From IMG/VR virus record IMGVR_UViG_2700989400_000002: DNA of 35,737 nt. One strand, written 5' to 3'. Positions 319 to 34,231 of the stretch are shown piece by piece. The stretch's first letter is position 1. Every line of letters starts with the position of its first letter. This DNA comes from a virus. Taxonomy: Duplodnaviria; Heunggongvirae; Uroviricota; Caudoviricetes. The notes beneath the pieces were generated by a model. It was not told the origin of the DNA and searched no databases. It saw only the letters and a program-made list of their open reading frames with translations. The position numbers were made by a program, and so were the translations under genes.

Positions 319-380
319 GAATATTTTTTGGTAAGCGTCAAACATGCGCGTTCTGGTTGTGCTTAGCCGGAACCTGTGCG

Positions 381-413
381 AGCACGATGCCGTTACGTGA
401 AAGGCATCGTGCT
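381..413. other. inverted repeat hairpin (11-bp stem agcacgatgcc / ggcatcgtgct, 11-nt loop) in host-side flank
   Basis: Perfect inverted repeat read directly; no following T-run, so not a clear intrinsic terminator. Confidence 0.35.
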
Positions 414-476
414 ATGAAGGGAGATTCTATCGATGTGGTCAATGGAAGACGGTGACCAGGGATAGGGCTTATGCAT

Positions 477-503
477 AAAAAATAAGCCCGTGTAAGGGAG
501 ATT
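477..503. repeat. attL core (27-bp P2-type att core), left copy of the direct repeat
   Basis: Exact 27-bp sequence AAAAAATAAGCCCGTGTAAGGGAGATT, repeated identically at 34205..34231; integrase gene lies immediately inside. Confidence 0.85.
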
Positions 504-582
504 TAGGGTGTCACCAGTAGGGGCTTTCAACGGTACAATGCGGGTTTGAGCGGCATAAATTACCACTGAAAGCCCTTAAACG

Positions 583-1596
583 TTACTCTACTGTGGACAC
601 TGTGTGGACACTCTCGGCTTCAGTACCACCTCTTAGCGGATTAAGAGAAATGGCGTCCTGAAGGTACTCTGGCGCAAAATGAGCGTAAACCATAGTTTGC
701 TCAATCCGCGTGTGACCTAGTATCCGTTGTAGCGTGATAATACTTCCTCCATTAATCATGAAATGAGTGGCAAAGCTGTGCCTTAGTGCATGTGTGGCTT
801 GCCCCGTTGGCAAATCCGGTTTTATTGCTTTCATTGTTCGTCTGAAGCGAGGGTAATCAGCATCAGGGAATAAAAAACCTCGTTTGTTATCCGCGATCAT
901 TTTGGCAACAGCCTCTGAGATCGGGACGGTGCGTGGTTTGTTTGTTTTCGTTTTAACAAACGTGACGCGGTTATGGATGATATTTTCTGCTTTCAAACGA
1001 GCTGCTTCTCCCCAACGTGCTCCTGTACTCAGGCAAAGAATCGCAATCTTTTTATTGTCGCCGTCAAGTGCTGCAAGCAGTAAGGCAATTTCTTCCTGTG
1101 TGAGATAGCCTGTTTCTGGTTTTTCCTCCTTAAGCCTCTTTGTCCCTCTGATAGGGTGCTCACCAAAGAATAACTCCGCTTCAATCAGGGCTGTAAACAT
1201 GCCGCTAATACATGTTAAATCACGATTGATACTCGAAGGTTTAATACCCTGACTTCTTCGGGTGGCGCAGTACTGGCTGATAAGGGATTTCGTGATTTGA
1301 AATGCGCATGGGTCATTCGTTATTTTTGTGAAGATTTCAATTTTTCCAAGATTAGATTTCCCATGCTCTTCGTGTTTACCCTTTAAATCCCACCAGATCT
1401 GTGTCAGTTCCGACAGACGTCGTTTGTCTGTTGGTTTTGATAGCCATTCTTTATTGTGGTGGTTGTACAACGTGTATTTTTCGAAAGCGACAGCTTCGCT
1501 TTTCTTATCAAACTTCCTACGGATGCGTTTTCCGTTACGTCCAGTAGGGCGGATGTCCACTTCATATCGACCATCATCGAGTTTTTTGATTGCCAT
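583..1596 (-). CDS. int: tyrosine integrase, P2 Int-like (337 aa)
   Basis: 337 aa as in P2 Int; C-terminal HxxR...Y catalytic motifs (HALRHSFATH, MVYAHF); adjacent to att core. Confidence 0.9.
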   Translation of the reverse strand: MAIKKLDDGRYEVDIRPTGRNGKRIRRKFDKKSEAVAFEKYTLYNHHNKEWLSKPTDKRRLSELTQIWWDLKGKHEEHGKSNLGKIEIFTKITNDPCAFQITKSLISQYCATRRSQGIKPSSINRDLTCISGMFTALIEAELFFGEHPIRGTKRLKEEKPETGYLTQEEIALLLAALDGDNKKIAILCLSTGARWGEAARLKAENIIHNRVTFVKTKTNKPRTVPISEAVAKMIADNKRGFLFPDADYPRFRRTMKAIKPDLPTGQATHALRHSFATHFMINGGSIITLQRILGHTRIEQTMVYAHFAPEYLQDAISLNPLRGGTEAESVHTVSTVE

Positions 1597-3900: not shown

Positions 3901-4172
3901 GTATTCGTATCGAAATTGGCGAACGTTATGTCGTTAGCAGTGACAGCTTTCAGTTTATTCTCCATGAGAAAAAGAGAGCGGAAAGCGGTAAAAACGCCGG
4001 TCAGGAATGGCTGGCGGTGGTTGGTTATTACCCGAAATTAAGCCAGCTCGTTTCCTGCCTGATGCATCACGATATTCTGACCGGAAGCGCAAAGTCTTTT
4101 GCTGATTTAAACGCGCAGGTTGAGCAACTCAGCAGGCGTTGTTCAGAGGCTTTTGGCTCATATGGCCGTTAA
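3897..4172 (+). CDS. hypothetical early protein (91 aa, P2 orf83 position)
   Basis: ATGA overlap with the upstream gene; ends 11 bp inside the A start. Confidence 0.55.
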   Translation: MSIRIEIGERYVVSSDSFQFILHEKKRAESGKNAGQEWLAVVGYYPKLSQLVSCLMHHDILTGSAKSFADLNAQVEQLSRRCSEAFGSYGR

Positions 4173-6447
4173 AGCCTCCGGGCGTTTTGTCCCTCCTTCA
4201 GCATTTGCTGCAGGCACCGGTAAGGCGTTTACCGGTGCTTATGCATGGAACGCGCCACGCGAGGCCGTCGGGCGCGAAAGACCCCTTACACGTGACGAGA
4301 TGCGTCAGGTGCAAGGTGTTTTATCCACGATTAACCGCCTGCCTTACTTTTTGCGCTCGCTGTTTACTTCACGCTATGACTACATCCGGCGCAATAAAAG
4401 CCCGGTGCACGGGTTTTATTTCCTCACATCCACTTTTCAGCGCCGTTTATGGCCGCGTATTGAGCGCGTGAATCAGCGCCATGAAATGAACACCGACGCG
4501 TCGTTACTGTTTCTGGCAGAGCGTGACCACTATGCGCGCCTGCCGGGAATGAATGACAAGGAGCTGAAAAAGTTTGCTGCCCGTATCTCATCGCAGCTTT
4601 TCATGATGTATGAGGAACTCAGCGATGCCTGGGTGGATGCGCATGGCGAAAAAGAATCGCTGTTTACGGATGAGGCGCAGGCTCACCTCTATGGTCATGT
4701 TGCTGGCGCTGCACGTGCTTTCAATATTTCCCCTCTCTACTGGAACAAATACCGTAAAGGGCAGATGACCACGAGGCAGGCATATTCTGCCATTGCCCGT
4801 CTGTTTAACGATGAGTGGTGGACTCATCAGCTTAAAGGCCAGCGTATGCGCTGGCATGAGGCGTTACTGATAGCTGTCGGGGAAGTCAATAAAGACCGTT
4901 CTCCTTATGCCAGTAAACATGCCATTCGTGATGTGCGTGCACGCCGCCAGGCAAATCTGGAATTTCTTAAATCGTGTGACCTTGAAAACAGGGAAACCGG
5001 CGAGCGCATCGACCTTATCAGTAAGGTGATGGGCAGTATTTCTAATCCTGAAATTCGCCGGATGGAGCTGATGAACACCATTGCCGGTATTGAGCGTTAC
5101 GCCGCTGCAGAGGGTGATGTGGGGATGTTTATCACGCTGACCGCGCCGTCAAAGTATCACCCGACACGTCAGGTCGGAAAAGGCGAAAGTAAAACCGTGC
5201 AGCTTAATCACGGCTGGAACGATGAGGCATTTAATCCAAAGGATGCGCAGCGTTATCTCTGCCGTATCTGGAGCCTGATGCGCACGGCATTCAAGGATAA
5301 TGATTTACAGGTCTACGGTTTGCGAGTCGTCGAGCCACACCATGACGGAACGCCGCACTGGCATATGATGCTTTTTTGTAATCCACGCCAGCGTAACCAG
5401 ATTATCGAAATCATGCGTCGCTATGCGCTCAAAGAGGATGGTGACGAAAGAGGAGCCGCGCGAAACCGTTTTCAGGCAAAACACCTTAACCGGGGCGGTG
5501 CTGCGGGATATATCGCGAAATACATTTCAAAAAACATCGACGGCTATGCACTGGATGGTCAGCTCGATAACGACACCGGCAGGCCGCTGAAAGACACTGC
5601 AGCGGCTGTTACCGCATGGGCGTCAACGTGGCGCATCCCGCAATTTAAAACGGTTGGCCTGCCGACAATGGGGGCTTACCGTGAACTACGCAAATTGCCG
5701 CGCGGCGTCAGCATTGCTGATGAGTTTGACGAGCGCGTCGAGGCTGCACGCGCCGCCGCAGACAGTGGTGATTTTGCGTTGTATATCAGCGCGCAGGGTG
5801 GGGCAAATGTCCCGCGCGATTGTCAGACTGTCAGAATCGCCCGTAGCCCGTCGGATGAAGTTAACGAGTACGAGGAAGAAGTCGAGAGAGTGGTCGGCAT
5901 TTACGCGCCGCATCTCGGCGCGCGTCATATTCATATCACCAGAACGACGGACTGGCGCATTGTGCCGAAAGTTCCGGTCGTTGAGCCTTTGACTTTAAAA
6001 AGCGGCATCGCCGCGCCTCGGAGTCCTGTCAATAACTGTGGAAAGCTCAACGGTGGTGACACTTCGTTACCGGCTCCCACACCTTCTGAGCACGCCGCAG
6101 CAGTGCTTAATCTGGTTGATGACGGTGTTATCGAATGGAATGACCCGGAGGTTGTGAGGGCGCTCAGAAGCGCATTAAAACACGGCCTGAGAAGACCAAA
6201 CCGTCAGCAAAGAAACGGAAGCCCGTTAAAACCACATGAAATTGCACCATCGGCCAGACTGACCCGGTCGGAAAGAATGCAAATCACCCGTATCCGCGTT
6301 GACCTTGCTCAGAACGGTATCAGGCCGCAGCGATGGGAGCTTGAGGCGCTGGTGCGTGGCGCGACCGTAAATTATGACGGGAAAAAATTCACGTATCCGG
6401 TCGCTGATGAGTGGCCGGGATTCTCAACAGTAATGGAGTGGACATGA
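4162..6447 (+). CDS. A: rolling-circle replication initiator A (HUH endonuclease, 761 aa)
   Basis: ATG at 4162 gives 761 aa as in P2 A; HUH motif (TPHWHMM) and tyrosine pair (GYIAKYISK) present. Confidence 0.9.
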   Translation: MAVKASGRFVPPSAFAAGTGKAFTGAYAWNAPREAVGRERPLTRDEMRQVQGVLSTINRLPYFLRSLFTSRYDYIRRNKSPVHGFYFLTSTFQRRLWPRIERVNQRHEMNTDASLLFLAERDHYARLPGMNDKELKKFAARISSQLFMMYEELSDAWVDAHGEKESLFTDEAQAHLYGHVAGAARAFNISPLYWNKYRKGQMTTRQAYSAIARLFNDEWWTHQLKGQRMRWHEALLIAVGEVNKDRSPYASKHAIRDVRARRQANLEFLKSCDLENRETGERIDLISKVMGSISNPEIRRMELMNTIAGIERYAAAEGDVGMFITLTAPSKYHPTRQVGKGESKTVQLNHGWNDEAFNPKDAQRYLCRIWSLMRTAFKDNDLQVYGLRVVEPHHDGTPHWHMMLFCNPRQRNQIIEIMRRYALKEDGDERGAARNRFQAKHLNRGGAAGYIAKYISKNIDGYALDGQLDNDTGRPLKDTAAAVTAWASTWRIPQFKTVGLPTMGAYRELRKLPRGVSIADEFDERVEAARAAADSGDFALYISAQGGANVPRDCQTVRIARSPSDEVNEYEEEVERVVGIYAPHLGARHIHITRTTDWRIVPKVPVVEPLTLKSGIAAPRSPVNNCGKLNGGDTSLPAPTPSEHAAAVLNLVDDGVIEWNDPEVVRALRSALKHGLRRPNRQQRNGSPLKPHEIAPSARLTRSERMQITRIRVDLAQNGIRPQRWELEALVRGATVNYDGKKFTYPVADEWPGFSTVMEWT

Positions 6448-6899
6448 TGGCAAAAATTCACGAGGTAAAGCTGCACGCAAAATATTTTGACCTTGTGCTG
6501 GAAGGACATAAACGTGCAGAGTTTCGGAAAAATGATCGTAATTATGAGCGCGGGGACACGTTGATTTTGCGTGAATGGGTGCAGGGTGTGTATACGGGGC
6601 GAAAGGTTGAAGCCCGGATAACAGATGTTACTGACCTGTCAGACTGGCTGGAAGATTATGTCTTGCTAAGTATTGAGCTGCTTAATACAGGTGCATATGA
6701 GATTGTGAACTGGAAAGAACTTAGTGAGCGTGGCCTGATATTCAGAATTAATCATGAAATTATGCATCAGCTCGGCCTTGCTGTTATGTATGAACCAGAG
6801 ACGGGGATGTCTGGCGGGGCAATGGTTGCCACGGATGGAGCATGGAACTATTCAGATGAACAGGTGGAGCGTGCACAGCAAAACGGGCGGCTTGGATAA
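6444..6899 (+). CDS. ASCH/DUF3850-like small protein (151 aa), translationally coupled to A
   Basis: ATG at 6444 overlaps the A stop (ATGATG); N-terminal KIHEVKLHAKYFDLVLEGHKRAEFRKNDR...GDTLILRE resembles the DUF3850/ASCH signature from memory. Confidence 0.55.
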   Translation: MMAKIHEVKLHAKYFDLVLEGHKRAEFRKNDRNYERGDTLILREWVQGVYTGRKVEARITDVTDLSDWLEDYVLLSIELLNTGAYEIVNWKELSERGLIFRINHEIMHQLGLAVMYEPETGMSGGAMVATDGAWNYSDEQVERAQQNGRLG

Positions 6900-7105
6900 T
6901 GCACAGAATTCTAGGCGAGATACCGCAGCATAACTCCAAAAGCGCCAAGCTGATGGCCATTGTTCAGCGTCTACAGCAGATTATGGTCAACGAAAATCTG
7001 ACGCCCGATGAGCTGGTCGGGTGTGCCGAAATAGTCCGGGATAATTACGGGCGGTTTAGCTATATCAGTCAGTCCAGAGTTATGCCAGCACCACGCAGAC
7101 GATAG
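6899..7105 (+). CDS. hypothetical small protein (68 aa)
   Basis: TAATG stop-start overlap with the upstream gene; followed by a hairpin. Confidence 0.45.
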   Translation: MHRILGEIPQHNSKSAKLMAIVQRLQQIMVNENLTPDELVGCAEIVRDNYGRFSYISQSRVMPAPRRR

Positions 7106-7211: not shown

Positions 7212-7736
7212 ATGCTGTTTCTGTGTAAACCGTTTCAGGAGATTAAAGTGATTACTTTTCAGACTATAAGAGATAAGTATATTGAAATCGTTCGGTTACA
7301 GAGAGAGGAAAAAGAGCGTTTACAAAATATTGTTGGGCTGATTGCGAAAAACTTTGAGGGGTCGCTTGAGCTTGAGCAAACTTGCTGGGGTTATCCAGGG
7401 CAAAATCCCACTGAAAATTATGTTTTTGTCGCTGCAATTAAAGATGGTGAAAAATCTAAAGTTCAGTTACACGATCTGTTGCCTGATGCAGATGGGGTTT
7501 TGTCATTTTTTATTGGTCTTACGGTGGATAAGTCACCGGTTGCTCATCCTAAGTTAAACGTGATTATTCCTTTGAAACTGCTACGTGAAGGGAATTGCTT
7601 TACGCTGGTAATAGGAAGCGGGGAATTCGAAATGAACTTAAGTGAAAAGCCAGCATTGCAAGAGCTTGAGGCTGTATCTGAAGCACTGAAACAAGCTGTA
7701 ATCAGAGACCTTGAATCTTACATTCCGGTGCGCTGA
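7212..7736 (+). CDS. hypothetical cargo protein (174 aa), no recognisable motif
   Basis: ORF with RBS (aggggg); moderately AT-rich; lies between the early-operon hairpin and cos, the slot occupied by tin/old in P2. An alternative GTG start at 7248 is possible. Confidence 0.55.
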   Translation: MLFLCKPFQEIKVITFQTIRDKYIEIVRLQREEKERLQNIVGLIAKNFEGSLELEQTCWGYPGQNPTENYVFVAAIKDGEKSKVQLHDLLPDADGVLSFFIGLTVDKSPVAHPKLNVIIPLKLLREGNCFTLVIGSGEFEMNLSEKPALQELEAVSEALKQAVIRDLESYIPVR

Positions 7737-7899
7737 TAATGTTTGTGGGGGAAAGCGATTTTCCCCGTTTTTGTGTGCGTGCATCAGGTGCATTGTTTTG
7801 CATGTGCCAAAGGCTGTTTTTATGGTCACTTGTTGCCTGTACCGGTGTGGTTTTGACGCCTTCATGCAACTGCATTAAATGTGACCCGCGAAGCGGGCG

Positions 7900-7918
7900 G
7901 GCGAGGCGGGGAAAGCAC
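7900..7918. other. cos cohesive-end site (19-nt P2-type sequence GGCGAGGCGGGGAAAGCAC)
   Basis: Exact match to the 19-nt P2/P4 cohesive end as I recall it; single occurrence in the window. Confidence 0.7.
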
Positions 7919-7991
7919 TGCGCGCAGAGCATAATTGGGTGTTTTGATAATGAAAATGCTTAACACAGTAATTTTCTAAGAGGTGATGATA

Positions 7992-9929
7992 ATGATTGCT
8001 GGAGTTTTTATAAGGAACTTTAAAACATACCAGGGGATAAATTACGTTCCTGTAAGTGATTCATCAAACTTGAGTGGTTTTCTTGGAAATAATGGCATTG
8101 GCAAAAGTTCTGTTTTAGAAGCATTGGATTGTGTATTTAATGATAGTTCATGGAACTTAAATATTGTTGTTAAGAAAAGTGGGTTAGAAAAAACAGAACC
8201 ATATATTGTCCCATTTTTTATCCTTGAACATGACTTTTTTGATAGTCTTCATCTACCATATGCACAAACATTAGATAAAATAGCTAGGACTATAACTGTT
8301 GATGACTCAACAAATCCTGCAACCAAATCGATAATAAGTGATTTTATTCATCATCGAGATAGGATTATTTCCAGAGGGGATGTGGATGGGAAGTTTTTAA
8401 TTCCTATAGGCCAAAACCATGAAGGAAAGATTTCCCTTTCTGTATTTAAGTCGAAGGTTATATCTTTCATGGATGAAAATGAGTTTGGAATCGAGTTTGA
8501 TAATTTGATTGAGTCTGAAGAGTATGTATCTTTATTTCAATCCTTATATATATACATATGTAATGCCTTGGAGTATCTTTATATACCGAAGGAGATTGAT
8601 AGCGAGTCTTTCACAAAGTTAGAAAGTATGGGGACTCAGGTACTCATGGGAGAATCCTTACATAAAATTTTGGATAGGATTGTTGGTGATAGCACTGTTT
8701 CCCAGATTAATAAAGAGTTAAATGGGTTTCTTGAAGATATATCTGGAAAGTTAATTAGTTATTCATATCGCACACCTACAGACAGACAAAAAAGGATTCA
8801 AAAGCGAGAGGTTTATAATCTTATTATAGAAGCCTTCTTCAATGTAAGAAAACTTCATAAAAATCAAGGCTCTGATTATTATCTGGAGATTAATTCTTTA
8901 AGTTCAGGTGAAAAGCAAAAAGCAATTATTGATGTTGCGCATGCTTTATTAACAAAACACCGCCAAGATGGAGGGCGTTTAATTATTGCAATTGATGAGC
9001 CTGAGTCATCACTGCATATGTCTGCGTGCTTTGAGCAATTTAATGCTCTTGCTGAATTGAGCCATAATTGCAGGCAGTTATTGTTCTCATCACATTGGTA
9101 TGGATTCTTACCTACTTTAGATTGCGGTTGCGTAACAATAATAACAAAGAAGGATTCAGAGCATAAGTTTGACTTAATTAATCTTGCTTCTTATCGCGAA
9201 GAGGTCAGGCAGTTAATAAGCTCAACTAATGGGAAAATGCCATTTGATATAAGGATAAAGAGTATCAATGATTTTATTCAGTCTATTGTAACCAGTGCTA
9301 CAGGAGATAATCCATATAACTGGATTATATGTGAGGGTACGTCTGAAAAAGTTTACTTGTCAGATTATTTCAAAGACCTTATGTGCGAAAGGAATCTTAG
9401 GATAATTCCGGTTGGTGGTGCAAAAGAGGTTAAAAGGATTTATGAGCAATTGGCTGCTTGTCATAAAGATATATCTGCGGAGTTGACTGGTGTTATTTAT
9501 TTATTATCAGATACCGATGTACAGCAAGTAAAATATCCAGTTGAGAAGTTGAAGAATATTTACTGTAAAAGAATTGTTTTCGATAAATCTGTGGGGAAAA
9601 CCGTTTTAGTAGATATAAATGGTAATCCTTCGTCACCTGCGACTGCCATAGAAGATTGTCTTAATGGGCAGGTGTTTCATCGAACTTTAATGACATATGT
9701 TTCTACTTATCCTCAGATTAGCTTTATCGCTACAGCACCAGTTAATGATTGTGATAATGAATCATTTAATTATTATGATCTTAGAACTTCTGAAAAGGAT
9801 GCTATCTTGGGTTTTTTTGCTGAGAATAATATGAAGTATGAATTTGCGCTGAAGTATAACTCTGAAAAATGCGATAGTGACTCAGTACCAGATTGGATTC
9901 AGAATGTAAAGGAAACGTTTCTGAAGTAA
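7992..9929 (+). CDS. OLD-family-like nuclease candidate: ABC-type ATPase plus C-terminal Toprim (646 aa)
   Basis: Walker A GNNGIGKS (8085..8108), signature-like LSSGEK, Walker B/D-loop LIIAIDEPESSLH (about 8980..9010), Toprim-like ICEGTSEK (E-G at 9333..9338) and LLSDTD (9510..9518); AT-rich. Start taken at ATG 7992 (RBS aagagg); the ORF track begins at GTG 7983. Confidence 0.65.
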   Translation: MIAGVFIRNFKTYQGINYVPVSDSSNLSGFLGNNGIGKSSVLEALDCVFNDSSWNLNIVVKKSGLEKTEPYIVPFFILEHDFFDSLHLPYAQTLDKIARTITVDDSTNPATKSIISDFIHHRDRIISRGDVDGKFLIPIGQNHEGKISLSVFKSKVISFMDENEFGIEFDNLIESEEYVSLFQSLYIYICNALEYLYIPKEIDSESFTKLESMGTQVLMGESLHKILDRIVGDSTVSQINKELNGFLEDISGKLISYSYRTPTDRQKRIQKREVYNLIIEAFFNVRKLHKNQGSDYYLEINSLSSGEKQKAIIDVAHALLTKHRQDGGRLIIAIDEPESSLHMSACFEQFNALAELSHNCRQLLFSSHWYGFLPTLDCGCVTIITKKDSEHKFDLINLASYREEVRQLISSTNGKMPFDIRIKSINDFIQSIVTSATGDNPYNWIICEGTSEKVYLSDYFKDLMCERNLRIIPVGGAKEVKRIYEQLAACHKDISAELTGVIYLLSDTDVQQVKYPVEKLKNIYCKRIVFDKSVGKTVLVDINGNPSSPATAIEDCLNGQVFHRTLMTYVSTYPQISFIATAPVNDCDNESFNYYDLRTSEKDAILGFFAENNMKYEFALKYNSEKCDSDSVPDWIQNVKETFLK

Positions 9930-9934
9930 GAATG

Positions 9935-9959
9935 ATAGAGGCATTATACATGCCTCTAT
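9935..9959. terminator. bidirectional hairpin between convergent cargo gene and Q (stem atagaggcat / atgcctctat)
   Basis: 10-bp perfect inverted repeat with 5-nt loop, flanked by A/T-rich sequence on both sides. Confidence 0.5.
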
Positions 9960-9967
9960 TATATATA

Positions 9968-10987
9968 CTAGAAATTATAATCTTTAAATGCCACAATATC
10001 CTGACCGAGCCAGCCGTTTATTTCCCGAATCCTGTCCTGTAGCGGGATAAGCTCATTGCGGACAAAGACCTTTGCCACTTTCTCAATATCACCCAGCGAC
10101 CCGACGTTCTCCGGCTTGCCGCCCATCAACTGAAAGGGGATGCGGTGCGCGTCCAGCAGGTCAGCGGCGCTGGCTTTTTTGATATTAAAAAAATCGTCCT
10201 TCGTTGCCACTTCACTGAGCGGGATAATTTTAATACCGTCGGCTTTCCCCTGCGGGGCATAGAGAAACAGATTTTTAAAGTTATTGCGGCCTTTCGACTT
10301 AACCATGTTTTCGCGAAGCATTTCGATATCGTTGCGATCCTGCACGGCATCGGTGACGTACATGATGTATCCGGCATGTGCGCCATTTTCGTAATACTTG
10401 CGGCGGAACAGCGTGGCCGACTCATTCAGCCAGGCAGAGTTAAGGGCGCTGAGATATTCCGGCAGGCCGTACAGCTCCTGATTAATATCAGGCTCCAGCA
10501 GGTGAAACACGGAGCCGGGCGCGAAGGCTGTCGGCTCGTTGAAGGACGGCACCCACCAGTAAACATCCTCCTCCACGCCACGGCGGGTATATTTTGCCGG
10601 TGAGGTTTCCAGTCTGATGACCTTACCGGTGGTGCTGTAACGCTTTTCCAGAAACGCATTACCGAACACCAGAAAATCCAGCACAAAGCGGCTGAAATCC
10701 TGTTGCGAAAGCCACGGATGCGGGATAAATGTCGAGGCCAGAATATTGCGTTTAACGTAAATCGGTGAGCTGTGATGCACGGCAGCACGCAGGCTTTTCG
10801 CCAGACCGGTAAAGCTGACCGGTGGCTCATACCATCTGCCGTTACTGATGCACTCGACGTAATCCAGAATGTCACGGCGGTCGAGTACCGGCACCGGCTC
10901 GCCAAAGGTGAATGCTTCCATTTTCGGGGAGCTGGCGGTCATTTTTTTTGCCGCAGGTTGCGGTGTTTTCCCTTTTTTCTTGCTCAT
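9968..10987 (-). CDS. Q: portal protein (339 aa)
   Basis: P2 gpQ-like size and position; start overlaps the P stop by 1 nt. Confidence 0.85.
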   Translation of the reverse strand: MSKKKGKTPQPAAKKMTASSPKMEAFTFGEPVPVLDRRDILDYVECISNGRWYEPPVSFTGLAKSLRAAVHHSSPIYVKRNILASTFIPHPWLSQQDFSRFVLDFLVFGNAFLEKRYSTTGKVIRLETSPAKYTRRGVEEDVYWWVPSFNEPTAFAPGSVFHLLEPDINQELYGLPEYLSALNSAWLNESATLFRRKYYENGAHAGYIMYVTDAVQDRNDIEMLRENMVKSKGRNNFKNLFLYAPQGKADGIKIIPLSEVATKDDFFNIKKASAADLLDAHRIPFQLMGGKPENVGSLGDIEKVAKVFVRNELIPLQDRIREINGWLGQDIVAFKDYNF

Positions 10988-12759
10988 CAGTAAAACTCCA
11001 GAATGGTGGATGTCAGCGGGGTGCTGATACCGGCGGTGAGTGGCTCATTTAACAGGGCGTGCATGGTCGCCCAGGCGAGGTCGGCGTGGCTGGCTTCCTC
11101 GCTGCGGCTGGCCTCATAGGTGGCGCTGCGTCCGCTGCTGGTCATGGTCTTGCGGATAGCCATAAACGAGCTGGTGATGTCGGTGGCGCTGACGTCATAT
11201 TCCAGACAGCCACGGCGGATAACGTCTTTTGCCTTGAGCACCATTGCGGTTTTCATTTCCGGTGTGTAGCGGATATCGCGCGCGGCGGGATAGAACGAGC
11301 GCACGAGCTGGAACACGCCGACACCGAGGCCGGTGGCATCAATACCGATATATTCGACGTTGTATTTTTCGGTGAGTTTGCGGATGGATTCCGCCTGAGT
11401 GGCAAAGTCCATGCCTTTCCACTGGTGACGCTCAAGTATTCTGAATTTGCCACCGGCCACCACCGGCGGTGCCAGTACCACGCATCCGGCACTGTCGCCA
11501 CGGTGTGACGGGTCGTAACCAATCCATACCGGGCGGGAGCCGAACGGATTCGCGGCAAACGGCGCATAGTCTTCCCATTCTTCCAGCGTGTCGACCATGC
11601 AGCGTTGCAGCTCCTCGAACGGGAACACCGACGCCTTGTCGTCAACAAATTCACACATGAACAGGTTTTTAAAATCGTCGGCGCTGTTTTCGCGTTTAAG
11701 CTGCTCAATGTCGAACAATGTGCAGCCGCCTTTCAGGGCGTCCTCAATGGTGACAATCTGCCGCCACTGGCCGTCCGCACAGAGAAGCCCACCGGCAAGG
11801 GCGTTATGACTGACGTCGATTTCCACGCGTTCGGCGGCGCTGGCGCGTCCCCGGTTAAACAGTTCACCGGACCAGAACGGGTAGGCGTCGTGCGCCAGCG
11901 TGGACGGGGTGGAGAAATAGGTTGAGCGCAGGTGACTCTGTGAGGCCATACCTGATGCCACCTTACGCAGCACCTGAAAATTCGGGATCCAGAAAATCTC
12001 GTCGACGTACAGGTCGCCGTTATGGCTCTGTGCGGTGTTGGAGTTGGTGCCGAGAAAAATCAGTTTTGCGCCGTTATTGCCCAGGACAATCGGGTCACCG
12101 GTCAGGTCAACGTCAACCAGCCGGGCAAAGGCGATAATGTATTCGCGGAACACATACGCCTGCGTTTTACTGGCCGACAGAAAAATCTGGTTATGACCGG
12201 TTTTCAGGGCGCGCAGCAGCGCCTCGCGGGAAAAATAAAACGTCGCGCCAATCTGGCGGGATTTCAGGATATCGCGGATGCGGTGCTCAAGCCCGGCGCG
12301 ATACCAGTGCAACTGATATTCGAAAGACTGCTCAAAGAAAATCTGCTCCAGCTTTTCGATGGCCTCGTCACTGAAAAAATTCTTTTTCGGTTTGCGACGC
12401 CCGCCTTTGTTGCGGTTAGCGACGTTCGGATTAAGGTCTGCCTCGTTGCCGGTCTGACTGTAACGGTTGACCCGTGCCAGTCGTTCAATCTGGCGTCCGA
12501 GCAGGTCAATTTCCTTGAAGTCACCGCCGGTTTTCTGCGGTTTGATGATGAGCTGGGTCAGCCGCGCTTCCAGACTCATTTCGACACGGCTGATGGGGGC
12601 AACGCTGTCCCAGCCGTCGCGCTGTTTCCAGCTCTGCACCGTCGGGCGTTTCATCTGCAACATGGCGGCAATCTGCGGCACGGAAAATCCCTGCCAGTAC
12701 AGCAGCGCCGCCTGACGACGCGGGTCGTGTAAAAGAGTGGTGTCTGTGGTGATGGTCAT
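10987..12759 (-). CDS. P: terminase large (ATPase) subunit (590 aa)
   Basis: ATG at 12759 (MTITTDTTLLHDPRRQAALLYWQGF) gives 590 aa as in P2 gpP; divergent from O. Confidence 0.85.
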   Translation of the reverse strand: MTITTDTTLLHDPRRQAALLYWQGFSVPQIAAMLQMKRPTVQSWKQRDGWDSVAPISRVEMSLEARLTQLIIKPQKTGGDFKEIDLLGRQIERLARVNRYSQTGNEADLNPNVANRNKGGRRKPKKNFFSDEAIEKLEQIFFEQSFEYQLHWYRAGLEHRIRDILKSRQIGATFYFSREALLRALKTGHNQIFLSASKTQAYVFREYIIAFARLVDVDLTGDPIVLGNNGAKLIFLGTNSNTAQSHNGDLYVDEIFWIPNFQVLRKVASGMASQSHLRSTYFSTPSTLAHDAYPFWSGELFNRGRASAAERVEIDVSHNALAGGLLCADGQWRQIVTIEDALKGGCTLFDIEQLKRENSADDFKNLFMCEFVDDKASVFPFEELQRCMVDTLEEWEDYAPFAANPFGSRPVWIGYDPSHRGDSAGCVVLAPPVVAGGKFRILERHQWKGMDFATQAESIRKLTEKYNVEYIGIDATGLGVGVFQLVRSFYPAARDIRYTPEMKTAMVLKAKDVIRRGCLEYDVSATDITSSFMAIRKTMTSSGRSATYEASRSEEASHADLAWATMHALLNEPLTAGISTPLTSTILEFY

Positions 12760-19204: not shown

Positions 19205-19990
19205 TTATGAGTGATTTTTATTTGATGCTTTGTATTCTAAAACCTTCTTATTGGCGTAAAAGAATTTTGTATATGACAGGAATATAACCAGACCTGAAGT
19301 GAAATAGACGAGGGATAGTATTAATAATGCTTTTTTGTGACTGTTATTATCTTTAATCTCCTGGCTTAACCATTCGGAGTCCTCCTCGTTTAGCTGTAAG
19401 AGCTTATTGCAGGCGATTTCAGGAAGTGTGTCTTTTATAAATACGTTTTGCAGTCTCTTGCAATCGGCAAGGCTATAAGTTTTATTAAATTCAACTGCTT
19501 TATTTTTGAAGGATAAAAGAACTTTGTCACTATAAACATAGTACATCATGTTTTTATATGGTATGCCTATGGCATCCCTTACTATAACGGATTGTTCGTT
19601 GTGTATGTAACATGCGAGGAGAATGTAAAAAATACTGGCCAGAATTACAATTATTGTTTTAATTATGTGTGGTGGTTTTGTTATGTCACCCCAGATGCGA
19701 GTAAGGAAAAAATACGATGTTTTTAGTTTTCCATCAATCAGTCCCTGCTGTATCATTCTCACATTTTCAATGCCTGATACATTGATTCCGTTAATTATTT
19801 TAAATAGTTGAATGTCGCGCCACTCGCGGTCAAGTCTTTTTAATTTTTTGTCTGAATATCCAAAATTGAAATAATGTGCAATAAGCCTCATAAGGTTACT
19901 TTTACCAAAGCTAAAAAATGCTAATACTGCAAAGCTACAAAGGAAAAAAACGATTAGCCCCCACACATTAGTCACATTATAGCTGACCAT
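19205..19990 (-). CDS. AT-rich integral membrane protein (261 aa, about 3 TM helices), P2 orf30 slot
   Basis: Antisense to the late operons; hydrophobic segments near residues 9-28, 108-128 and 222-241; strongly AT-rich. Confidence 0.6.
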   Translation of the reverse strand: MVSYNVTNVWGLIVFFLCSFAVLAFFSFGKSNLMRLIAHYFNFGYSDKKLKRLDREWRDIQLFKIINGINVSGIENVRMIQQGLIDGKLKTSYFFLTRIWGDITKPPHIIKTIIVILASIFYILLACYIHNEQSVIVRDAIGIPYKNMMYYVYSDKVLLSFKNKAVEFNKTYSLADCKRLQNVFIKDTLPEIACNKLLQLNEEDSEWLSQEIKDNNSHKKALLILSLVYFTSGLVIFLSYTKFFYANKKVLEYKASNKNHS

Positions 19991-25611: not shown

Positions 25612-27225
25612 ATGAGCAATTCATTTTCAATTACACTACCTACAAAAGAAAAAGACCTAGCGGAAATAGAGACTAATCAGAGCGTGCTTATTATCGGTGC
25701 GAATGGCTCTGGAAAGTCTCGCCTTGGGACATGGATGGATCTAAAATCTCCTCAAAGAAATATTGTTCATCGTATTTCCGCTCAGCGGGCTTTAGCGATG
25801 CCTGACCATACAACACCAACTTCGCTTCAACAAGCACAGAATAATTTACTCTATGGAATTGAAAATTTGGAAGGGTCGGAACTACTTTGGTATAAAGAGA
25901 ATTATCGCTGGGGAAGTAAACCTGCCATATCATCATTAAATGATTATGGTAAATTAATGGTGTATCTCTTTTCAGACAAAATTGAAGAAAACTCGAAATA
26001 TATTGAATTAGTTAAATCTTCAGAAAAAAGAATTGAACCAACGACGACTAAATTAGATAAAATTAAATATATTTGGGAAAAAACATTACCTCACCGAGAG
26101 CTTGTTTTAGGCGGTTTGACAATTCAAACACGAGCAAAAGGAAATAACGAGGCTGTCTATAACCCCTCGGAAATGAGCGACGGTGAGCGAGTTATTTTCT
26201 ATCTGATTGGGCAATGTCTTGCAGCACCCGAAAATGGAATTATTGTCATAGACGAGCCAGAAATTCATCTTCACAAATCTGTACAAGTTCCATTATGGAA
26301 GGATATAGAAAAACTCCGACCTGATTGCCTGTTTGTATATATGACTCATGATACTGATTTTGCTGCAGCACTGCATGATGCAAAGAAAATCTGGTTAAAA
26401 AGTTATGATGGTTCCAGTTGGGATTGGGAAGATGTTCCCGATGTCGAAGGCCTACCAGAAAGTTTATTAATTGAAATATTGGGTAGTAGAAAACCAATTG
26501 TTTTTGTTGAGGGGGAAAATGGAAGCTATGATGTATCCCTTTATCGTGCTGTGTTAAATAGTTATCTAGTGATACCATCTGGTTCTTGTAGTCAAGTAAT
26601 ACAAAATGTTAAAGCTCTAAGAGCCAGTGAAAAACTCCATTATATGGAAGTTTTTGGTATTATTGATAGGGATAGACGTGTTGAAAATGAAATTCAATCG
26701 CTTCTGGAATACGGTATTTATACTCTAAGCGTGGCTGAAGTCGAAAATCTCTTTTGCGTTCCGGAAGTTATAACTTTAGTTAGCGAACGATTAGTCAGGA
26801 ATCCAGATAAAGATCTACAATCAGTTAAAGATTTTGTGTTCCGTAAAATATCCTCAGAGCTGGATACTCAGATTTCACTGCGTGTGGCTGGCGAAATTAA
26901 ATTCATGCTTAATTGTTTTGATGAAAAAGCAAAAGGGGTCGATGCTCTTAGTAGAGCTCTTGAGTTGTTGACGTCACAAATTAATGTTAAAGAGCTTTAT
27001 GATGAAAGTTTATCTCTGTTTAATAATGCAGTTGAGAAACGTGATTATCTTCTTGCATTAAAACTTTATAACAGGAAAAGCCTTTCATCCCAAGTAAGTA
27101 AGCATCTGGGGCTGGCTAATGGACAGCTTGCTGAATTAGTGGTCAGGATGGCTAATAATGAAAGTGGAGAGTCAATGAGAAATGCTCTCAGACCATATTT
27201 TGGTGAGTTTTCGAGTAAAATATAG
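25612..27225 (+). CDS. ABC-type ATPase fused to Toprim/DUF4435-like domain (537 aa), Z/fun-slot cargo
   Basis: Walker A GANGSGKS (25696..25719), SDGER signature-like, Walker B/D-loop IIVIDEPEIHLH (D-E-P-E at 26251..26262), Toprim-like VFVEGENGSYD (26509..26517) and IIDRD (26665..26673); strong RBS aaggaggg; AT-rich. Confidence 0.65.
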   Translation: MSNSFSITLPTKEKDLAEIETNQSVLIIGANGSGKSRLGTWMDLKSPQRNIVHRISAQRALAMPDHTTPTSLQQAQNNLLYGIENLEGSELLWYKENYRWGSKPAISSLNDYGKLMVYLFSDKIEENSKYIELVKSSEKRIEPTTTKLDKIKYIWEKTLPHRELVLGGLTIQTRAKGNNEAVYNPSEMSDGERVIFYLIGQCLAAPENGIIVIDEPEIHLHKSVQVPLWKDIEKLRPDCLFVYMTHDTDFAAALHDAKKIWLKSYDGSSWDWEDVPDVEGLPESLLIEILGSRKPIVFVEGENGSYDVSLYRAVLNSYLVIPSGSCSQVIQNVKALRASEKLHYMEVFGIIDRDRRVENEIQSLLEYGIYTLSVAEVENLFCVPEVITLVSERLVRNPDKDLQSVKDFVFRKISSELDTQISLRVAGEIKFMLNCFDEKAKGVDALSRALELLTSQINVKELYDESLSLFNNAVEKRDYLLALKLYNRKSLSSQVSKHLGLANGQLAELVVRMANNESGESMRNALRPYFGEFSSKI

Positions 27226-32146: not shown

Positions 32147-32160
32147 GGAGGTGACGAAAA

Positions 32161-32640
32161 ATGATGCTCGCGTTAGGTATGTTTGTTTTTATGCGCCAGA
32201 CGCTGCCACACCAGACCATGCAGCGTGAATCAGATTATCGCTGGCCGTCAAATTCCCGTATCGGCAAACGGGATGCCTTTCAATTTCTCGGTGTGGGTGA
32301 GGAAAACATCACGCTTGCCGGTGTGCTTTATCCCGAACTGACCGGCGGAAAGCTGACGATGACCACGCTCAGGCTGATGGCTGAGGAAGGCCGGGCGTGG
32401 CCGTTGCTGGATGGCACTGGCATGATTTACGGCATGTATGTCATCAGCAAGGTGAGTGAAACAGGGAGTATTTTCTTTGCAGACGGCACACCCCGAAAAA
32501 TTGATTTTACGCTGTCGCTCACCCGCGTTGATGAATCACTGGCCGCGCTGTATGGCGATATCGGTAAACAGGCGGAATCGCTCATCGGTAAGGCTGGCAG
32601 TATGGCGACCAGATTCACGGGGATGACGGGGGCGGGATAA
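32161..32640 (+). CDS. U: tail protein U (159 aa)
   Basis: Length and position as P2 gpU. Confidence 0.85.
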   Translation: MMLALGMFVFMRQTLPHQTMQRESDYRWPSNSRIGKRDAFQFLGVGEENITLAGVLYPELTGGKLTMTTLRLMAEEGRAWPLLDGTGMIYGMYVISKVSETGSIFFADGTPRKIDFTLSLTRVDESLAALYGDIGKQAESLIGKAGSMATRFTGMTGAG

Positions 32641-33803
32641 TGTTGGATGCGCTGACATTTGATGCAGGCAGTACGCTGACGCCGGATTACATGCTGATGC
32701 TCGACAGCAGGGATATTACCGGCAATATCAGCGACCGTCTGATGAGCATGACCCTGACGGATAACCGGGGCTTTGAGGCTGACCAGCTTGATATTGAACT
32801 GAACGATGCCGACGGGCAGGTCGGGCTGCCGGTTCGTGGCGCTGTCCTGACGGTGTATATCGGCTGGAAAGGTTTTGCCCTGGTATGCAAAGGGAAATTT
32901 ACCGTTGATGAGGTTGAACACCGGGGCGCGCCGGATGTGGTCACCATCCGCGCCCGGAGTGCAGATTTTCGCGGGACGCTCAATTCCCGCCGGGAAGGCT
33001 CCTGGCATGACACCACACTCGGTGCGATTGTTGAGGCGATAGCCTCCCGTAACAAGCTGGAGGCCAGTGTCGCTCCGTCACTGGCCGGAATTAAAATCCC
33101 GCACATCGACCAGTCGCAGGAGTCTGATGCGAAATTCCTGACCCGTCTTGCAGAACGCAACGGCGGTGAGGTGTCGGTAAAAATGGGAAAACTGTTGTTT
33201 CTCAAAGCGGGGCAGGGGGTGACGGCCAGCGGTAAAAAAATCCCGCAGGTCACCATCACCCGCAGCGACGGCGACCGTCATCATTTTGCGATTGCTGACC
33301 GTGGAGCCTATACCGGCGTTACGGCAAAGTGGTTACACACCAAAGACCCGAAGCCGCAAAAGCAGAAGGTAAAACTGAAACGCAAAAAGAAAGAGAAACA
33401 CCTGCGCGCACTGGAGCACCCGAAAGCGAAACCGGTCACGCAGAAGAAAGAGCCAAAAGTACCGGAAGCGCGCGAAGGTGAATACATGGCCGGTGAGGCT
33501 GACAACGTTTTTGCCCTGACCACGGTATATGCCACGAAAGCACAGGCCATGCGCGCCGCTCAGGCGAAGTGGGATAAACTGCAACGGGGTGTTGCGGAGT
33601 TCTCCATCAGCCTGGCTACTGGTCGGGCAGATATTTACACGGAAACACCGGTTAAAGTGTCAGGCTTTAAGCGCGTCATAGACGAGCAGGACTGGACCAT
33701 CACTAAGGTGACACATTGTCTCAATAATAGCGGCTTCACGACGTCCTTGGAGCTTGAGGTAAGGCTTTCTGATGTGGAGTACGAAACAGAAGATGATGAG
33801 TGA
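32640..33803 (+). CDS. D: tail protein D (387 aa)
   Basis: Length and position as P2 gpD; ATGA overlap with U. Confidence 0.85.
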   Translation: MLDALTFDAGSTLTPDYMLMLDSRDITGNISDRLMSMTLTDNRGFEADQLDIELNDADGQVGLPVRGAVLTVYIGWKGFALVCKGKFTVDEVEHRGAPDVVTIRARSADFRGTLNSRREGSWHDTTLGAIVEAIASRNKLEASVAPSLAGIKIPHIDQSQESDAKFLTRLAERNGGEVSVKMGKLLFLKAGQGVTASGKKIPQVTITRSDGDRHHFAIADRGAYTGVTAKWLHTKDPKPQKQKVKLKRKKKEKHLRALEHPKAKPVTQKKEPKVPEAREGEYMAGEADNVFALTTVYATKAQAMRAAQAKWDKLQRGVAEFSISLATGRADIYTETPVKVSGFKRVIDEQDWTITKVTHCLNNSGFTTSLELEVRLSDVEYETEDDE

Positions 33804-34141: not shown

Positions 34142-34204
34142 TCGATGTGGTCAATGTGTGGACGTGACCAGAAATAAATCCTTTTATTTCATTGAATTAC
34201 GCGT

Positions 34205-34231
34205 AAAAAATAAGCCCGTGTAAGGGAGATT
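34205..34231. repeat. attR core (27-bp P2-type att core), right copy of the direct repeat
   Basis: Identical to 477..503. Confidence 0.85.

Follow-up and report, generated by a model that had tools for sequence, protein, structure and literature searches.

The gene that lies between the cohesive-end site (cos) and the portal gene Q in a P2-type E. coli prophage likely encodes a stand-alone, class-1-like nuclease of the OLD superfamily that serves in defence and is carried by a swappable, low-GC cassette. The gene (hereafter, the cos-Q gene) was analyzed within a 35,737-nucleotide stretch of DNA (hereafter, the window); its product combines an ABC-type ATPase with a Toprim domain in a single polypeptide, and it is probably an anti-phage defence gene, as judged from its relatives and genomic contexts. 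The prophage in the window, of which the gene is lysogenic-conversion cargo, is 33.7 kb long, i.e. of P2 size, with an intact integrase and att repeats, and is apparently intact. In strain MB07081, the integrase gene is split by an IS3 element; an interpretation of the host element as a defective prophage was nevertheless rejected, given that the window and strain MEI4B-1023 both lack IS3 and retain the integrase.

The cohesive end was located by the 19-nt sequence GGCGAGGCGGGGAAAGCAC at positions 7900–7918 (+), an exact and unique match to P2 cosL with a chance expectation of 0.01. This sequence is embedded in a conserved core at 7871–7928 that is shared with P2 (P2 33546 to 29; 52 of 58 positions identical by BLASTN). 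No other cos-like site was detected in the window at up to 3 mismatches, which speaks against a cos located elsewhere, and, with the 58-bp core kept, this cos is putatively functional. In alignments with 186-type loci and with a locus carrying PD-T4-4, homology around cos stops about 8 nt beyond the cohesive end. There begins a replacement cassette of approximately 2.07 kb (7927–9998), delimited by P2 homology, GC content and junctions, that stands in place of about 200 bp of P2 DNA with tQ, a terminator, as well as the final Q codons. Its left junction (~7927) is defined against a comparison locus (L121) and its right junction falls inside the Q tail, with P2 homology picking up again at 9999 (P2 position 233); the GC content is 32–37% in the cassette segment vs. 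52–59% in the phage backbone. The distance from cos to Q is 2049 bp in the window compared to 167 bp in P2, where this interval contains tQ and the old gene is on the opposite side of cos, in line with the view of a sequence-only reading of this DNA that the interval is nearly empty in P2.

From 9999 onward, the portal gene (9968–10987, −; stop at 9968) shares 97% identity with P2 Q, whereas its last ~10 codons (9968–9998, −) are borne by the cassette and read DIVAFKDYNF vs. EVIRFKNYSLDTDND in P2; this tail varies among loci with different cassettes. Between the two convergent genes, there is a strong hairpin at 9932–9962 (−19.9 kcal/mol, z = −5.8; 0 of 200 shuffled sequences fold as well), slightly longer than the 9935–9959 originally assigned to it, that is terminator-like on the Q strand and is the probable replacement of P2 tQ as the terminator of the P-Q operon; possibly, it also terminates the cassette gene. 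The low-GC cargo thus lies between the replication gene A (4120–6447) and Q, that is, in the gpA-gpQ hotspot, and specifically between the cohesive end and the portal-operon terminator, next to a cos core that is intact, on its Q side, and convergent with the portal gene. With this geometry, the cos-Q gene would be the left-terminal gene of the packaged DNA.

The open reading frame of the cos-Q gene spans positions 7992–9929 (+) and encodes 645 amino acids, one fewer than initially counted for the same coordinates; RefSeq (WP_000560120.1) annotates the same start, and a ribosome-binding site, GGTGA, is present at 7982–7986. No sigma-70-like promoter was found between 7768 and the ATG at the scan threshold; by eye, TTGATA (7944–7949) followed, after a 17-nt spacer, by AGTAAT is a weak candidate promoter at most. 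With no promoter passing the scan, expression of the gene in the lysogen is presumed.

The N-terminal part of the protein is an ABC/SMC-type ATPase domain (aa 1–368; 7992–9095, +) with a helical insertion, in which we identified the Walker A motif GNNGIGKS (aa 32–39; 8085–8108, +), the signature LSSGEK (aa 303–308; 8898–8915, +), the Walker B motif LIIAIDEPESSLH (aa 330–342; 8979–9017, +) and the H-loop residue His368. It is followed by a Toprim domain (aa ~440–530; 9309–9581, +), delineated by motifs, Pfam, hhalign and Foldseek, that is a putative nuclease with the motifs CEGxSE (ICEGTSEK, aa 446–453; 9330–9347, +), PVGG (9408–9419, +) and DTD (aa 507–509, in LLSDTD, aa 504–509; 9510–9518, +), and by a mostly helical C-terminal domain (aa ~531–645; 9582–9926, +) inferred from the secondary structure of an AlphaFold2 model (pLDDT ~85–95). 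The reading frame, the ATPase and Toprim motifs, cos and the stop codon of Q were all found where the sequence-only reading had placed them. In an alignment of 40 homologues with a mean column identity of 64%, the Walker A, signature, Walker B and H-loop residues are invariant in 40/40 sequences; in the Toprim domain, E448, E452 and D509 are invariant and D507, the first Asp of DxD, is at least 90% conserved, and K615, Y622, P633 and W635 are conserved in the C-terminal helical domain.

Database and structure comparisons support the assignment of the cos-Q protein to the OLD superfamily as an ABC-ATPase–Toprim fusion. The Pfam models AAA_15 (61 bits) and AAA_21 (48 bits) both exceed their cut-offs; with OLD-like_TOPRIM (PF20469), the window allele reaches 22.5 bits, just under the gathering cut-off of 23.2, and many close homologues carry this annotation. 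The matching PADLOC models are AriA, Old, retron I-B ATPase-Toprim and GajA. With the full-length structure, the best Foldseek matches were the retron Eco8 OLD nuclease and Gabija GajA (E ~ 1e-12). The ATPase domain most closely resembles the heads of SMC and Rad50 and matches OLD ATPases as well, whereas a model of the C-terminal domain (pLDDT 85), built with database homologues of the protein, matched best retron Eco2, AriB, the C-terminal region of BpOLD and topoisomerase II, with individually weak values (E from 1e-3 to 0.1). A caveat is that the Toprim assignment depends on motifs together with a sub-threshold Pfam score for this allele and weak Foldseek matches. An NCBIfam search yielded just ABC-transporter matches, all sub-threshold, and in phmmer and profile searches of PDB sequences, the only matches, SMC1 and a retron ATPase, were confined to the N-terminal P-loop region.

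The window also holds a genuine fused PARIS gene (AriAB; 25612–27225), which likewise combines an ATPase and a Toprim domain in a single chain as cargo of a P2 hotspot. The cos-Q protein might itself be a single-polypeptide PARIS, i.e. a fusion of AriA and AriB that would sense anti-restriction proteins, such as Ocr, and then release or activate a DUF4435-type Toprim domain cleaving tRNA. AriA is indeed its best PADLOC match (62.7 bits), AriB (8ux9_A) ranks second among the Foldseek matches of the C-terminal model, hhalign pairs the Toprim E, GG and DxD residues with those of the window AriAB (E = 2e-4), and a homologue, system 164 discussed below, is tagged DUF4435 in Rousset et al. 2022, a caveat in favour of this assignment. 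Nevertheless, we consider it unlikely. A PADLOC AriAB model scores the window AriAB at 622 bits, and Pfam DUF4435 scores it at 74 bits, whereas the cos-Q protein scores a weak 34.8 bits on a related AriAB model, with the best stretch confined to the N-terminal P-loop region, and shows no Pfam DUF4435 match at E ≤ 0.1 but does match OLD-like_TOPRIM. By hhalign, the match to P2 Old is the more probable one (76%, vs. 44% for AriAB), although, overall, the protein is about equally distant from the two.

It is similarly improbable that the family represents a distinct, fifth ATPase-Toprim immunity lineage, separate from Old, GajA, retron-OLD and PARIS, with a trigger and a substrate of its own, with unusually high conservation (~45–50% identity from Enterobacteria to Bacteroidota and Cyanobacteria) and with a recurrent placement just inside the left cohesive end of P2- and 186-type phages that is functional rather than merely permissive. 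Were this the case, the left-end site could, for instance, secure expression as soon as the DNA end enters the cell, or cos could act as a recombination handle mobilising the cassette between helper phages.

A stand-alone nuclease of the OLD superfamily, the reading that we prefer, is consistent with the distribution of the family. We identified 789 homologues of the cos-Q protein and, in a separate count, 241 clusters at 50% identity (E ≤ 1e-30) in several phyla. The protein belongs to a separate family of stand-alone proteins of ~640 aa for which no specific model exists in PADLOC, NCBIfam or PHROG. A full-text literature search found no paper mentioning four RefSeq accessions of family members. 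Identity between phyla stays at ~45–50%, which implies purifying selection. Among 32 loci from Proteobacteria, Bacteroidota and Cyanobacteria, no conserved neighbour of the gene was detected. The contexts are diverse: a solitary, 67%-identical chromosomal copy is flanked by housekeeping genes (an ABC transporter gene and, adjoining moaE, a Bax1-I-family gene); a type I restriction-modification operon encloses the gene in two Pseudomonas genomes (hsdM-hsdS-X-hsdR); in E. coli SF-468, it occupies the S-V site, a recognised defence hotspot of P2-like prophages; and in 186-type prophages of Salmonella, Enterobacter and E. coli, homologues with ~61–62% identity are found in the same position between cos and the portal gene, the Salmonella homologue being indexed in 264 blocks of the collection.

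The same data bear on the possibility that the gene is a selfish or decaying passenger, either a toxin-like nuclease that causes addiction or a remnant that has lost its activity and hitch-hikes in a permissive slot. The allele is present in 3 of the 5426 complete E. coli genomes, all environmental isolates, several homologues elsewhere are split by frameshifts or insertions (loci L004, L029, L030, L032, L033 and L034), and the promoter scan upstream of the ATG was negative. Against this, the reading frame in the window is intact with nearly all catalytic motif residues invariant in the homologue alignment, the three E. coli copies are 99.8–100% identical, and the family evolves under the selection indicated by its conservation across phyla; hence a passenger status seems quite improbable.

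As an insertion site, the cos-Q interval is a minority location that had already been described as accepting foreign genes, and the present finding is real but ordinary. The gpA-gpQ region, which includes this interval, is a published defence hotspot of P2 (Rousset 2022; Vassallo 2022), and the cos-Q interval itself was proposed as a hotspot for foreign genes in 1996–1999, from retrons Ec67 and Ec86 in a 186-like prophage and ctx in phiCTX; in particular, Dodd and Egan 1996, as cited in later papers, reported that these retrons replace DNA between cos and a terminator. By our estimate, ~5% (at most 8%) of P2-type elements carry cargo here. Other P2-type elements contain, in the same slot, PD-T4-4, a GmrSD/NsnA-like gene or a PDC-S02-like gene, and in an E. 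coli prophage that otherwise matches the window, the slot is occupied by PD-T4-4. The sequence-only reading was to be refuted if the arrangement proved to be the common one, already on record, for P2 Old homologues, and this applies in part: the interval is on record as an insertion hotspot, and the arrangement is not peculiar to this prophage, with the same position in 186-type prophages, but within P2-type elements, it is confined to the minority. The layout is identical in phiCTX, with cosL at 1–21, ctx (+) at 362–1222, terminators and the convergent portal gene from 1417, and also in the 186-related prophages with retrons Ec67 and Ec86 inserted between cos and the portal gene; the cargo is a cytotoxin in phiCTX and retrons in the latter, and instead an ATPase-Toprim gene in the window. 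In 186, cos (1–19) is followed by the terminator tW (164–187) and the portal stop (196). Given this interchange of unrelated defence cassettes in the slot, the ~95% of P2-type elements with no gene there, the short interval in sequenced P2-like virions and the homologues that are solitary in the chromosome, in type I operons or at the S-V site far from cos, it is highly improbable that the cos-Q protein serves the phage itself by SMC/RecF/SbcC-like handling of DNA near cos, whether for packaging, for the protection of ends or for replication, despite the fact that, in four or more prophage lineages, it adjoins cos and the packaging genes and despite the likeness of its ATPase domain to SMC and Rad50 heads.

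On the A side of cos, the window carries another cargo gene (7248–7736, +; WP_140430775.1), for which RefSeq gives 162 aa compared to the 174 aa from 7212 of the earlier call; it shows no Pfam or PADLOC match and falls in phrog_5091, a family of unknown function. The gene is closed, before cos, by an intrinsic-terminator-like hairpin at 7745–7768 (+) with a 10-pair stem and a T-run tail, TTTTGTGTGC, and in strain DETEC-S565, it is accompanied by a PD-T4-4 cassette on the Q side. Because it has its own terminator and a different Q-side cassette in that strain, it is an independent unit; accordingly, a two-gene system split by cos was rejected. In the interval 7737–9968, there is no convincing second gene either: the other reading frames of at least 50 aa are four of 55–76 aa, which overlap cos or gene ends.

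The association of the cos-Q gene with defence stems from the nesting of family members in type I restriction-modification operons, their location in the gpA-gpQ and S-V hotspots and the defence cassettes found in the same slot. The cassette might have been exchanged between P2-type and 186-type phages via recombination, conceivably with one crossover about 8 nt beyond the cohesive end and the other inside the final ~10 portal-gene codons. By analogy with relatives, the prophage would express the protein in the lysogen, where the ATPase would restrain the Toprim nuclease until an infection cue, and ATP binding or hydrolysis would license Mg-dependent cleavage of nucleic acid. The target could be tRNA, as in the case of P2 Old and AriB, or phage DNA that would be nicked, as by Vc OLD and GajA; cleavage would then abort the growth of the competing phage. 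The analysis shows that what is published as a single gpA-gpQ hotspot in P2 consists of two slots with cos between them, the one on the Q side being minor (~5% of elements filled); Q-side cassettes, such as the cos-Q gene and PD-T4-4, would be swapped between a point ~8 nt from the cohesive end and the final codons of Q. A widespread single-gene ATPase-Toprim family that lacks a model of its own is a candidate for defence screens and would be useful for asking whether its Toprim domain cuts tRNA or DNA, although the practical value is modest, and neither the two-slot view nor this candidate overturns established knowledge.

Among the known systems, class 1 OLD proteins are defined by the lack of an adjacent UvrD/PcrA-type helicase, reverse transcriptase or GajB partner, and the cos-Q gene corresponds to this definition: its neighbours in the window are cos and Q, and no partner recurs in the 32 loci. 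Judged by reading frames and neighbours, it thus differs from GajA (class 4) and from retron-OLD (retron Eco8 OLD, class 3), each of which has a partner, and resembles, in this respect, the class 1 proteins, such as the OLD of Thermus scotoductus (6p74) and that of V. cholerae (Vc OLD; HAS2513945.1), the latter a DNA nickase that blocks ICP1 replication; sequence identity to the other OLD-class nucleases is 12–16%.

P2 Old (NP_046798.1), the founding member of class 1, which, once ATP hydrolysis has activated it, cleaves tRNA-Thr(UGU) in the anticodon stem, shares with the cos-Q protein the ABC ATPase and Toprim domains in one polypeptide as well as the status of prophage cargo adjoining cos in the A-Q hotspot. 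The relationship is remote: hhalign gives a probability of 76% with 23% identity over 218 columns (586 vs. 645 aa), with motifs collinear from the signature to the Toprim Glu and GG and the CEG of the cos-Q protein opposite the VEG of P2 Old, and the PADLOC Old model scores 41.7 bits, its best stretch covering only aa 315–487. In addition, tblastn of 50,697 sequenced phage records, P2 included, returned no match to the cos-Q protein. The OLD-like ATPase-Toprim identity originally proposed is borne out by Pfam, PADLOC, motifs and Foldseek, and comparison with P2 Old indicates a remote kinship but not orthology, so that the acquisition or relocation of a P2-type old gene on the Q side of cos is not upheld. 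The settings also differ, on opposite strands: P2 old is on the A/orf91 side of cos, is transcribed leftward and forms an operon with tin, whereas the cos-Q gene is on the Q side, is transcribed towards Q and is not accompanied by tin.

The closest catalogued relative is system 164 ('AAA_15/AAA_21/DUF4435'; 11 gpA-gpQ loci) in Table S5B of Rousset et al. 2022 (Cell Host Microbe), which belongs to the family of the cos-Q protein; that work catalogues the system, and we found there no test of it and no discussion of the side of cos. The listed sequence shares 100% identity over 399 aa with the gene in E. coli XJW9B263 (locus L123), compared to 68% with the window protein. As in the window, the gene is located between cos and the portal gene, in this case as a different allele on a 186-type backbone with another cos variant, GGCGTGGCGGGGATACGAG.

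The gene between cos and the portal gene Q is an open reading frame on the plus strand (7992-9929) with coordinates identical to those of RefSeq WP_000560120.1 ('AAA family ATPase') and a ribosome-binding site, GGTGA, 5 nt 5' of its ATG; the sequence-only reading placed it correctly and gave its product as 646 aa, where the length is 645 aa. The cos-Q protein carries Walker A GNNGIGKS (aa 32-39), the signature LSSGEK (aa 303-308), Walker B LIIAIDEPESSLH (aa 330-342), ICEGTSEK (aa 446-453) and LLSDTD (aa 504-509). Across 40 aligned homologues, the invariant residues are G32, G35, G37, K38, S39, S304-Q309, D335, E336, H342 and H368 on the ATPase side and, farther along, C447-E448-G449, E452, G475-G476, T508 and D509; D507 is kept in at least 90%. 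The cos 19-mer GGCGAGGCGGGGAAAGCAC (7900-7918) equals the annotated cosL of P2 and has a single match in the window even at three mismatches (chance expectation 0.01). Q, on the minus strand, has its stop at 9968, and between the convergent stops of the two genes lies a hairpin (9932-9962; 13-bp stem, dG −19.9 kcal/mol, z −5.8) that resembles a terminator on the Q strand. The GC content of the segment is 32-37% vs. 52-59% in the adjoining phage genes, and no promoter passed in a scan of the sequence 5' of the gene (7769-7991). Thus, with the ORF, its motifs, a unique cos, the Q stop, the hairpin and the low GC content all found in the sequence, the observation of an ATPase-Toprim gene between cos and Q is confirmed.

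In the P2 reference, cos occupies positions 1-19, the terminator tQ 160-181 and the Q stop 187, and old (31620-33380, minus strand) lies on the far side of cos, beside tin. Comparison of the circularised P2 junction with the window by BLASTN returned three blocks: window 6422-6667 to P2 30294-30539, at the A/orf91 boundary; window 7871-7928 to P2 33546..29, the cos core (52/58 identical); and window 9999-11000 to P2 233-1234, in Q (97% identical). Hence, about 2.07 kb in the window replaces about 200 bp of P2, namely, tQ and the last Q codons. The prophage adjoins yegR, and the positions of its 28-bp att repeats (TAAAAAATAAGCCCGTGTAAGGGAGATT; 476-503 and 34204-34231) yield an element of 33.7 kb (P2, 33.6 kb). 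The integrase ORF is intact, and, judged by its sequence, the prophage looks complete; an IS3 in the integrase gene of the near-identical copy in MB07081 (L120, 13308-14565) is absent from both the window and MEI4B-1023.

The cos-Q protein matches Pfam AAA_15 (61 bits, aa 1-368), AAA_21 and, slightly below the 23.2 cut-off, OLD-like_TOPRIM (22.5 bits, aa 444-491), and PF20469 is recorded for many of its close homologues. The PADLOC matches are moderate and generic only (AriA 62.7, AbiLi 45, AriAB 34.8, GajA about 25), with Old at 41.7 (best stretch aa 315-487) and the retron type I-B ATPase-Toprim at 36.8 (aa 22-527); no specific model matched in NCBIfam or PHROGs. A Foldseek comparison with the PDB, starting from an AlphaFold model that drew on 40 homologues (mean pLDDT 76.6), ranked the retron Eco8 OLD nuclease and Gabija GajA highest over the full length (E about 1e-12), ahead of SMC and Rad50 heads. 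When the C-terminal 251 residues (aa 395-645) were modelled separately (pLDDT 85), the best match was the retron Eco2 (Ec67) protein (E 1e-3), and AriB of PARIS, topoisomerase II and the C-terminal region of Burkholderia OLD were also among the best; these matches to a predicted structure, individually weak, agree in pointing to a Toprim fold. Profile comparison with P2 Old gave 76% probability (E 2e-5), with a collinear alignment from the signature motif through Walker B and CEG/VEG to PVGG/AVDG. Membership in the PARIS AriAB models was rejected, given the 34.8-bit AriAB score and a 44% probability (E 2e-4) in the profile comparison with the fused PARIS protein of the window itself, and orthology with P2 Old was likewise rejected, the identity being 23% over 218 columns. 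Family searches, structure and profile comparisons thus identify the protein as an OLD-superfamily ATPase-Toprim fusion that is no orthologue of P2 Old and falls outside the PARIS AriAB models. As described, the gene is OLD-like, codes for an ATPase-Toprim protein and lies on the Q side of cos; the suggestion that such cargo had moved there does not hold for P2 old itself. As a separate observation, retron Eco2 (Ec67), whose protein matches the Toprim domain best in structure, reportedly fills the equivalent slot of a 186-like prophage, between cos and a DNA packaging gene; the conjunction of structural match and shared slot is probably a coincidence.

A family search returned 789 matches, and the homologues listed are about 640-660 aa long, collinear and at least 48% identical; HMMER, run exhaustively over 1.84 billion representatives, found 241 clusters (50% identity) at E ≤ 1e-30. 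At 32 loci from species-representative genomes (43-61% identity; Gamma- and Betaproteobacteria, Bacteroidota and Cyanobacteria), the flanking ORFs were compared all against all, and no neighbour was conserved. The gene is therefore stand-alone, as class 1 OLD is by its operational definition (without helicase, without reverse transcriptase). Pseudomonas abyssi and P. fluorescens (L011, 4313-13030, and L012) show the order hsdM-hsdS-family gene-hsdR, i.e. a type I restriction-modification operon, confirmed by Pfam in L011. A 67%-identical copy stands alone among chromosomal housekeeping genes, with an ABC transporter on one side and a Bax1-I-family gene next to moa on the other. At six loci (L004, L029, L030, L032, L033 and L034), all in other genomes, the homologue appears split in two ORFs or interrupted, suggestive of either frequent gene inactivation or assembly errors in metagenome-assembled genomes.

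No encoded homologue was found at E ≤ 1e-5 in 50,697 sequenced phage records, yet in the protein collection 264 blocks are indexed for a Salmonella prophage version (L035). This homologue (62% identical) belongs to a 186/Fels-2-type prophage; its stop lies 25 bp from the portal stop, and a cos-like GCGGGCAGGCGTGGCGGGGATACGAG is located roughly 80 nt 5' of its start. The same cos-gene-portal order is found in the 186-type prophages of E. coli XJW9B263 and PSS-12 and, beside a portal remnant, in Enterobacter ludwigii. Family members are present in 27 of 5426 complete E. coli genomes: three carry the window allele, all environmental (seawater, soil, fresh water); 10 carry one of two allele groups with about 67% nucleotide identity (2 inspected, both at the cos-portal site); and a third group, found in 14, is more divergent (protein identity 46%; 1 inspected, SF-468). 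The SF-468 member (46% identical; L125, 3501-5459) occupies the S-V cargo site of P2 type, away from the cos-portal interval. This site, where P2 carries orf30, is equivalent to the position of a 261-aa ORF of the window (19205-19990, minus strand) that is flanked by S (virion morphogenesis) and V (baseplate), lies on the opposite strand and had no match in a Pfam search.

The cos-Q slot holds other cargo as well. DETEC-S565 and the window are 97.6% identical on the left side, a stretch that takes in cos and the 174-aa gene on its A side; past cos, DETEC-S565 has a 478-aa ATPase and a 190-aa gene, followed by the portal gene. Going by PADLOC on the equivalent IMG/VR locus (L088), these two genes correspond to PD-T4-4 A and B. 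Among the 80 IMG/VR loci nearest to the window Q gene, cos was detectable downstream of Q in 79, with a short P2-like interval (<200 bp) in 75/79 and cargo of 1.4-2.3 kb (33-37% GC, transcribed towards Q) in 4/79 (5%), namely, PD-T4-4, a GmrSD-N/NsnA-like gene with a nucleotidyltransferase-like gene, a PDC-S02-like gene with a 229-aa partner, and an unknown 333-aa gene. These other cos-Q cargoes of P2-type elements (L088 2395-4393; L121 4017-6018; L081 7174-8851; L060 6610-8402; L064 7228-8229) are all AT-rich and convergent with Q. A Q 3' end of the window type occurs in 1623 complete E. coli genomes, and in 1496 of these (92%) cos lies about 200 bp from the Q end in one copy or more, so that a long interval is possible in at most about 8%; among sequenced P2-like virions, in records that apparently begin with cos, the distance from the left end to the end of Q is roughly 90-330 bp. 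The junctions are sharp: the window and the PD-T4-4 locus cease to be homologous about 8 nt past the cohesive end. On the other flank, the last ~10 Q codons (9968-9998, minus strand) lie inside the low-GC cassette, and the residues they encode vary among several compared loci (DIVAFKDYNF in the window, EVIRFKNYSLDTDND in P2), with the pattern xVIxFKxY kept. Because this tail differs among several loci with different cos-Q cargo, the swapped DNA appears to include part of an essential structural gene besides the cargo, and the junction sequences fit recombination exchange between diverged P2-like phages. The A-Q hotspot thus has a clean structure of two slots.

On the A side, the orf91 homologue (6411-6899, plus strand) is a 162-aa ORF (about 150 aa in RefSeq; 109 aa in P2) with DUF3850/ASCH and C-terminal DUF7415 domains, followed by a 68-aa gene (6899-7105, phrog_11386) and the 174-aa gene (7212/7248-7736, plus strand; 162-174 aa; phrog_5091, function unknown), which had no match in Pfam, PADLOC or defence databases. 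The 174-aa gene was rejected as a partner of the cos-Q gene, given the strong intrinsic terminator between them (7745-7768, 3' of the 174-aa gene and before cos) and its recurrence in DETEC-S565 with PD-T4-4, not the cos-Q gene, on the Q side. The gene for the fused PARIS protein (537 aa, WP_000071451.1; 25612-27225, plus strand) is flanked by those for tail-fibre assembly and the tail sheath, in the Z/fun hotspot. The protein reaches 622 bits against a PADLOC AriAB model and 74 bits against Pfam DUF4435; the prophage thus has two different ATPase-Toprim genes.

What was observed directly is the architecture of the protein, the conservation of its motifs, its stand-alone status, the position of its gene and the junctions of the cassette; function is approached by analogy. 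ATP hydrolysis activates P2 Old, which amputates the anticodon stem of tRNA-Thr(UGU); AriB is reported to cleave tRNA; and Vc OLD nicks DNA and blocks the replication of ICP1. By analogy with these activities, we propose an ATPase-gated defence nuclease, a role that the cos-Q protein quite probably has. The prophage would express this Toprim nuclease, which would respond to a superinfecting phage by cleaving tRNA or DNA, with neither substrate preferred, and cleavage would lead to abortive infection or exclusion.

As a cargo slot, the cos-Q position is minor and known, and earlier work on the P2 hotspot had already listed the family. Rousset et al. (2022) described the gpA-gpQ hotspot as 'adjacent to the cos site' and pooled all genes between Q and A, i.e. 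both sides of cos without distinction; their system 164 has 100% identity with the XJW9B263 gene (399 aa compared) and 68% with the window protein. The same hotspot was described by Vassallo et al. (2022) and in a 2026 NAR study, and the cos-portal interval was proposed long ago as a site at which P2-like phages acquire foreign genes. Given the precedents of Rousset et al. (2022), phiCTX and retrons Ec67 and Ec86, the arrangement is in part an already described configuration, as the sequence-only reading had allowed it might be: the slot was known before, but in P2-type elements it is filled in a minority. The remaining interest is in a widespread, well-conserved, uncharacterised family and in the two-slot A-Q hotspot. 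In 186, the cos-portal interval contains the terminator tW only; in a 186-related prophage, retrons Ec67 and Ec86 reportedly replace the DNA from cos to a terminator (Dodd and Egan, 1996); and in phiCTX, cosL (1-21) is followed by ctx (362-1222, plus strand), with its own promoter and terminators, and by the convergent portal gene from 1417.
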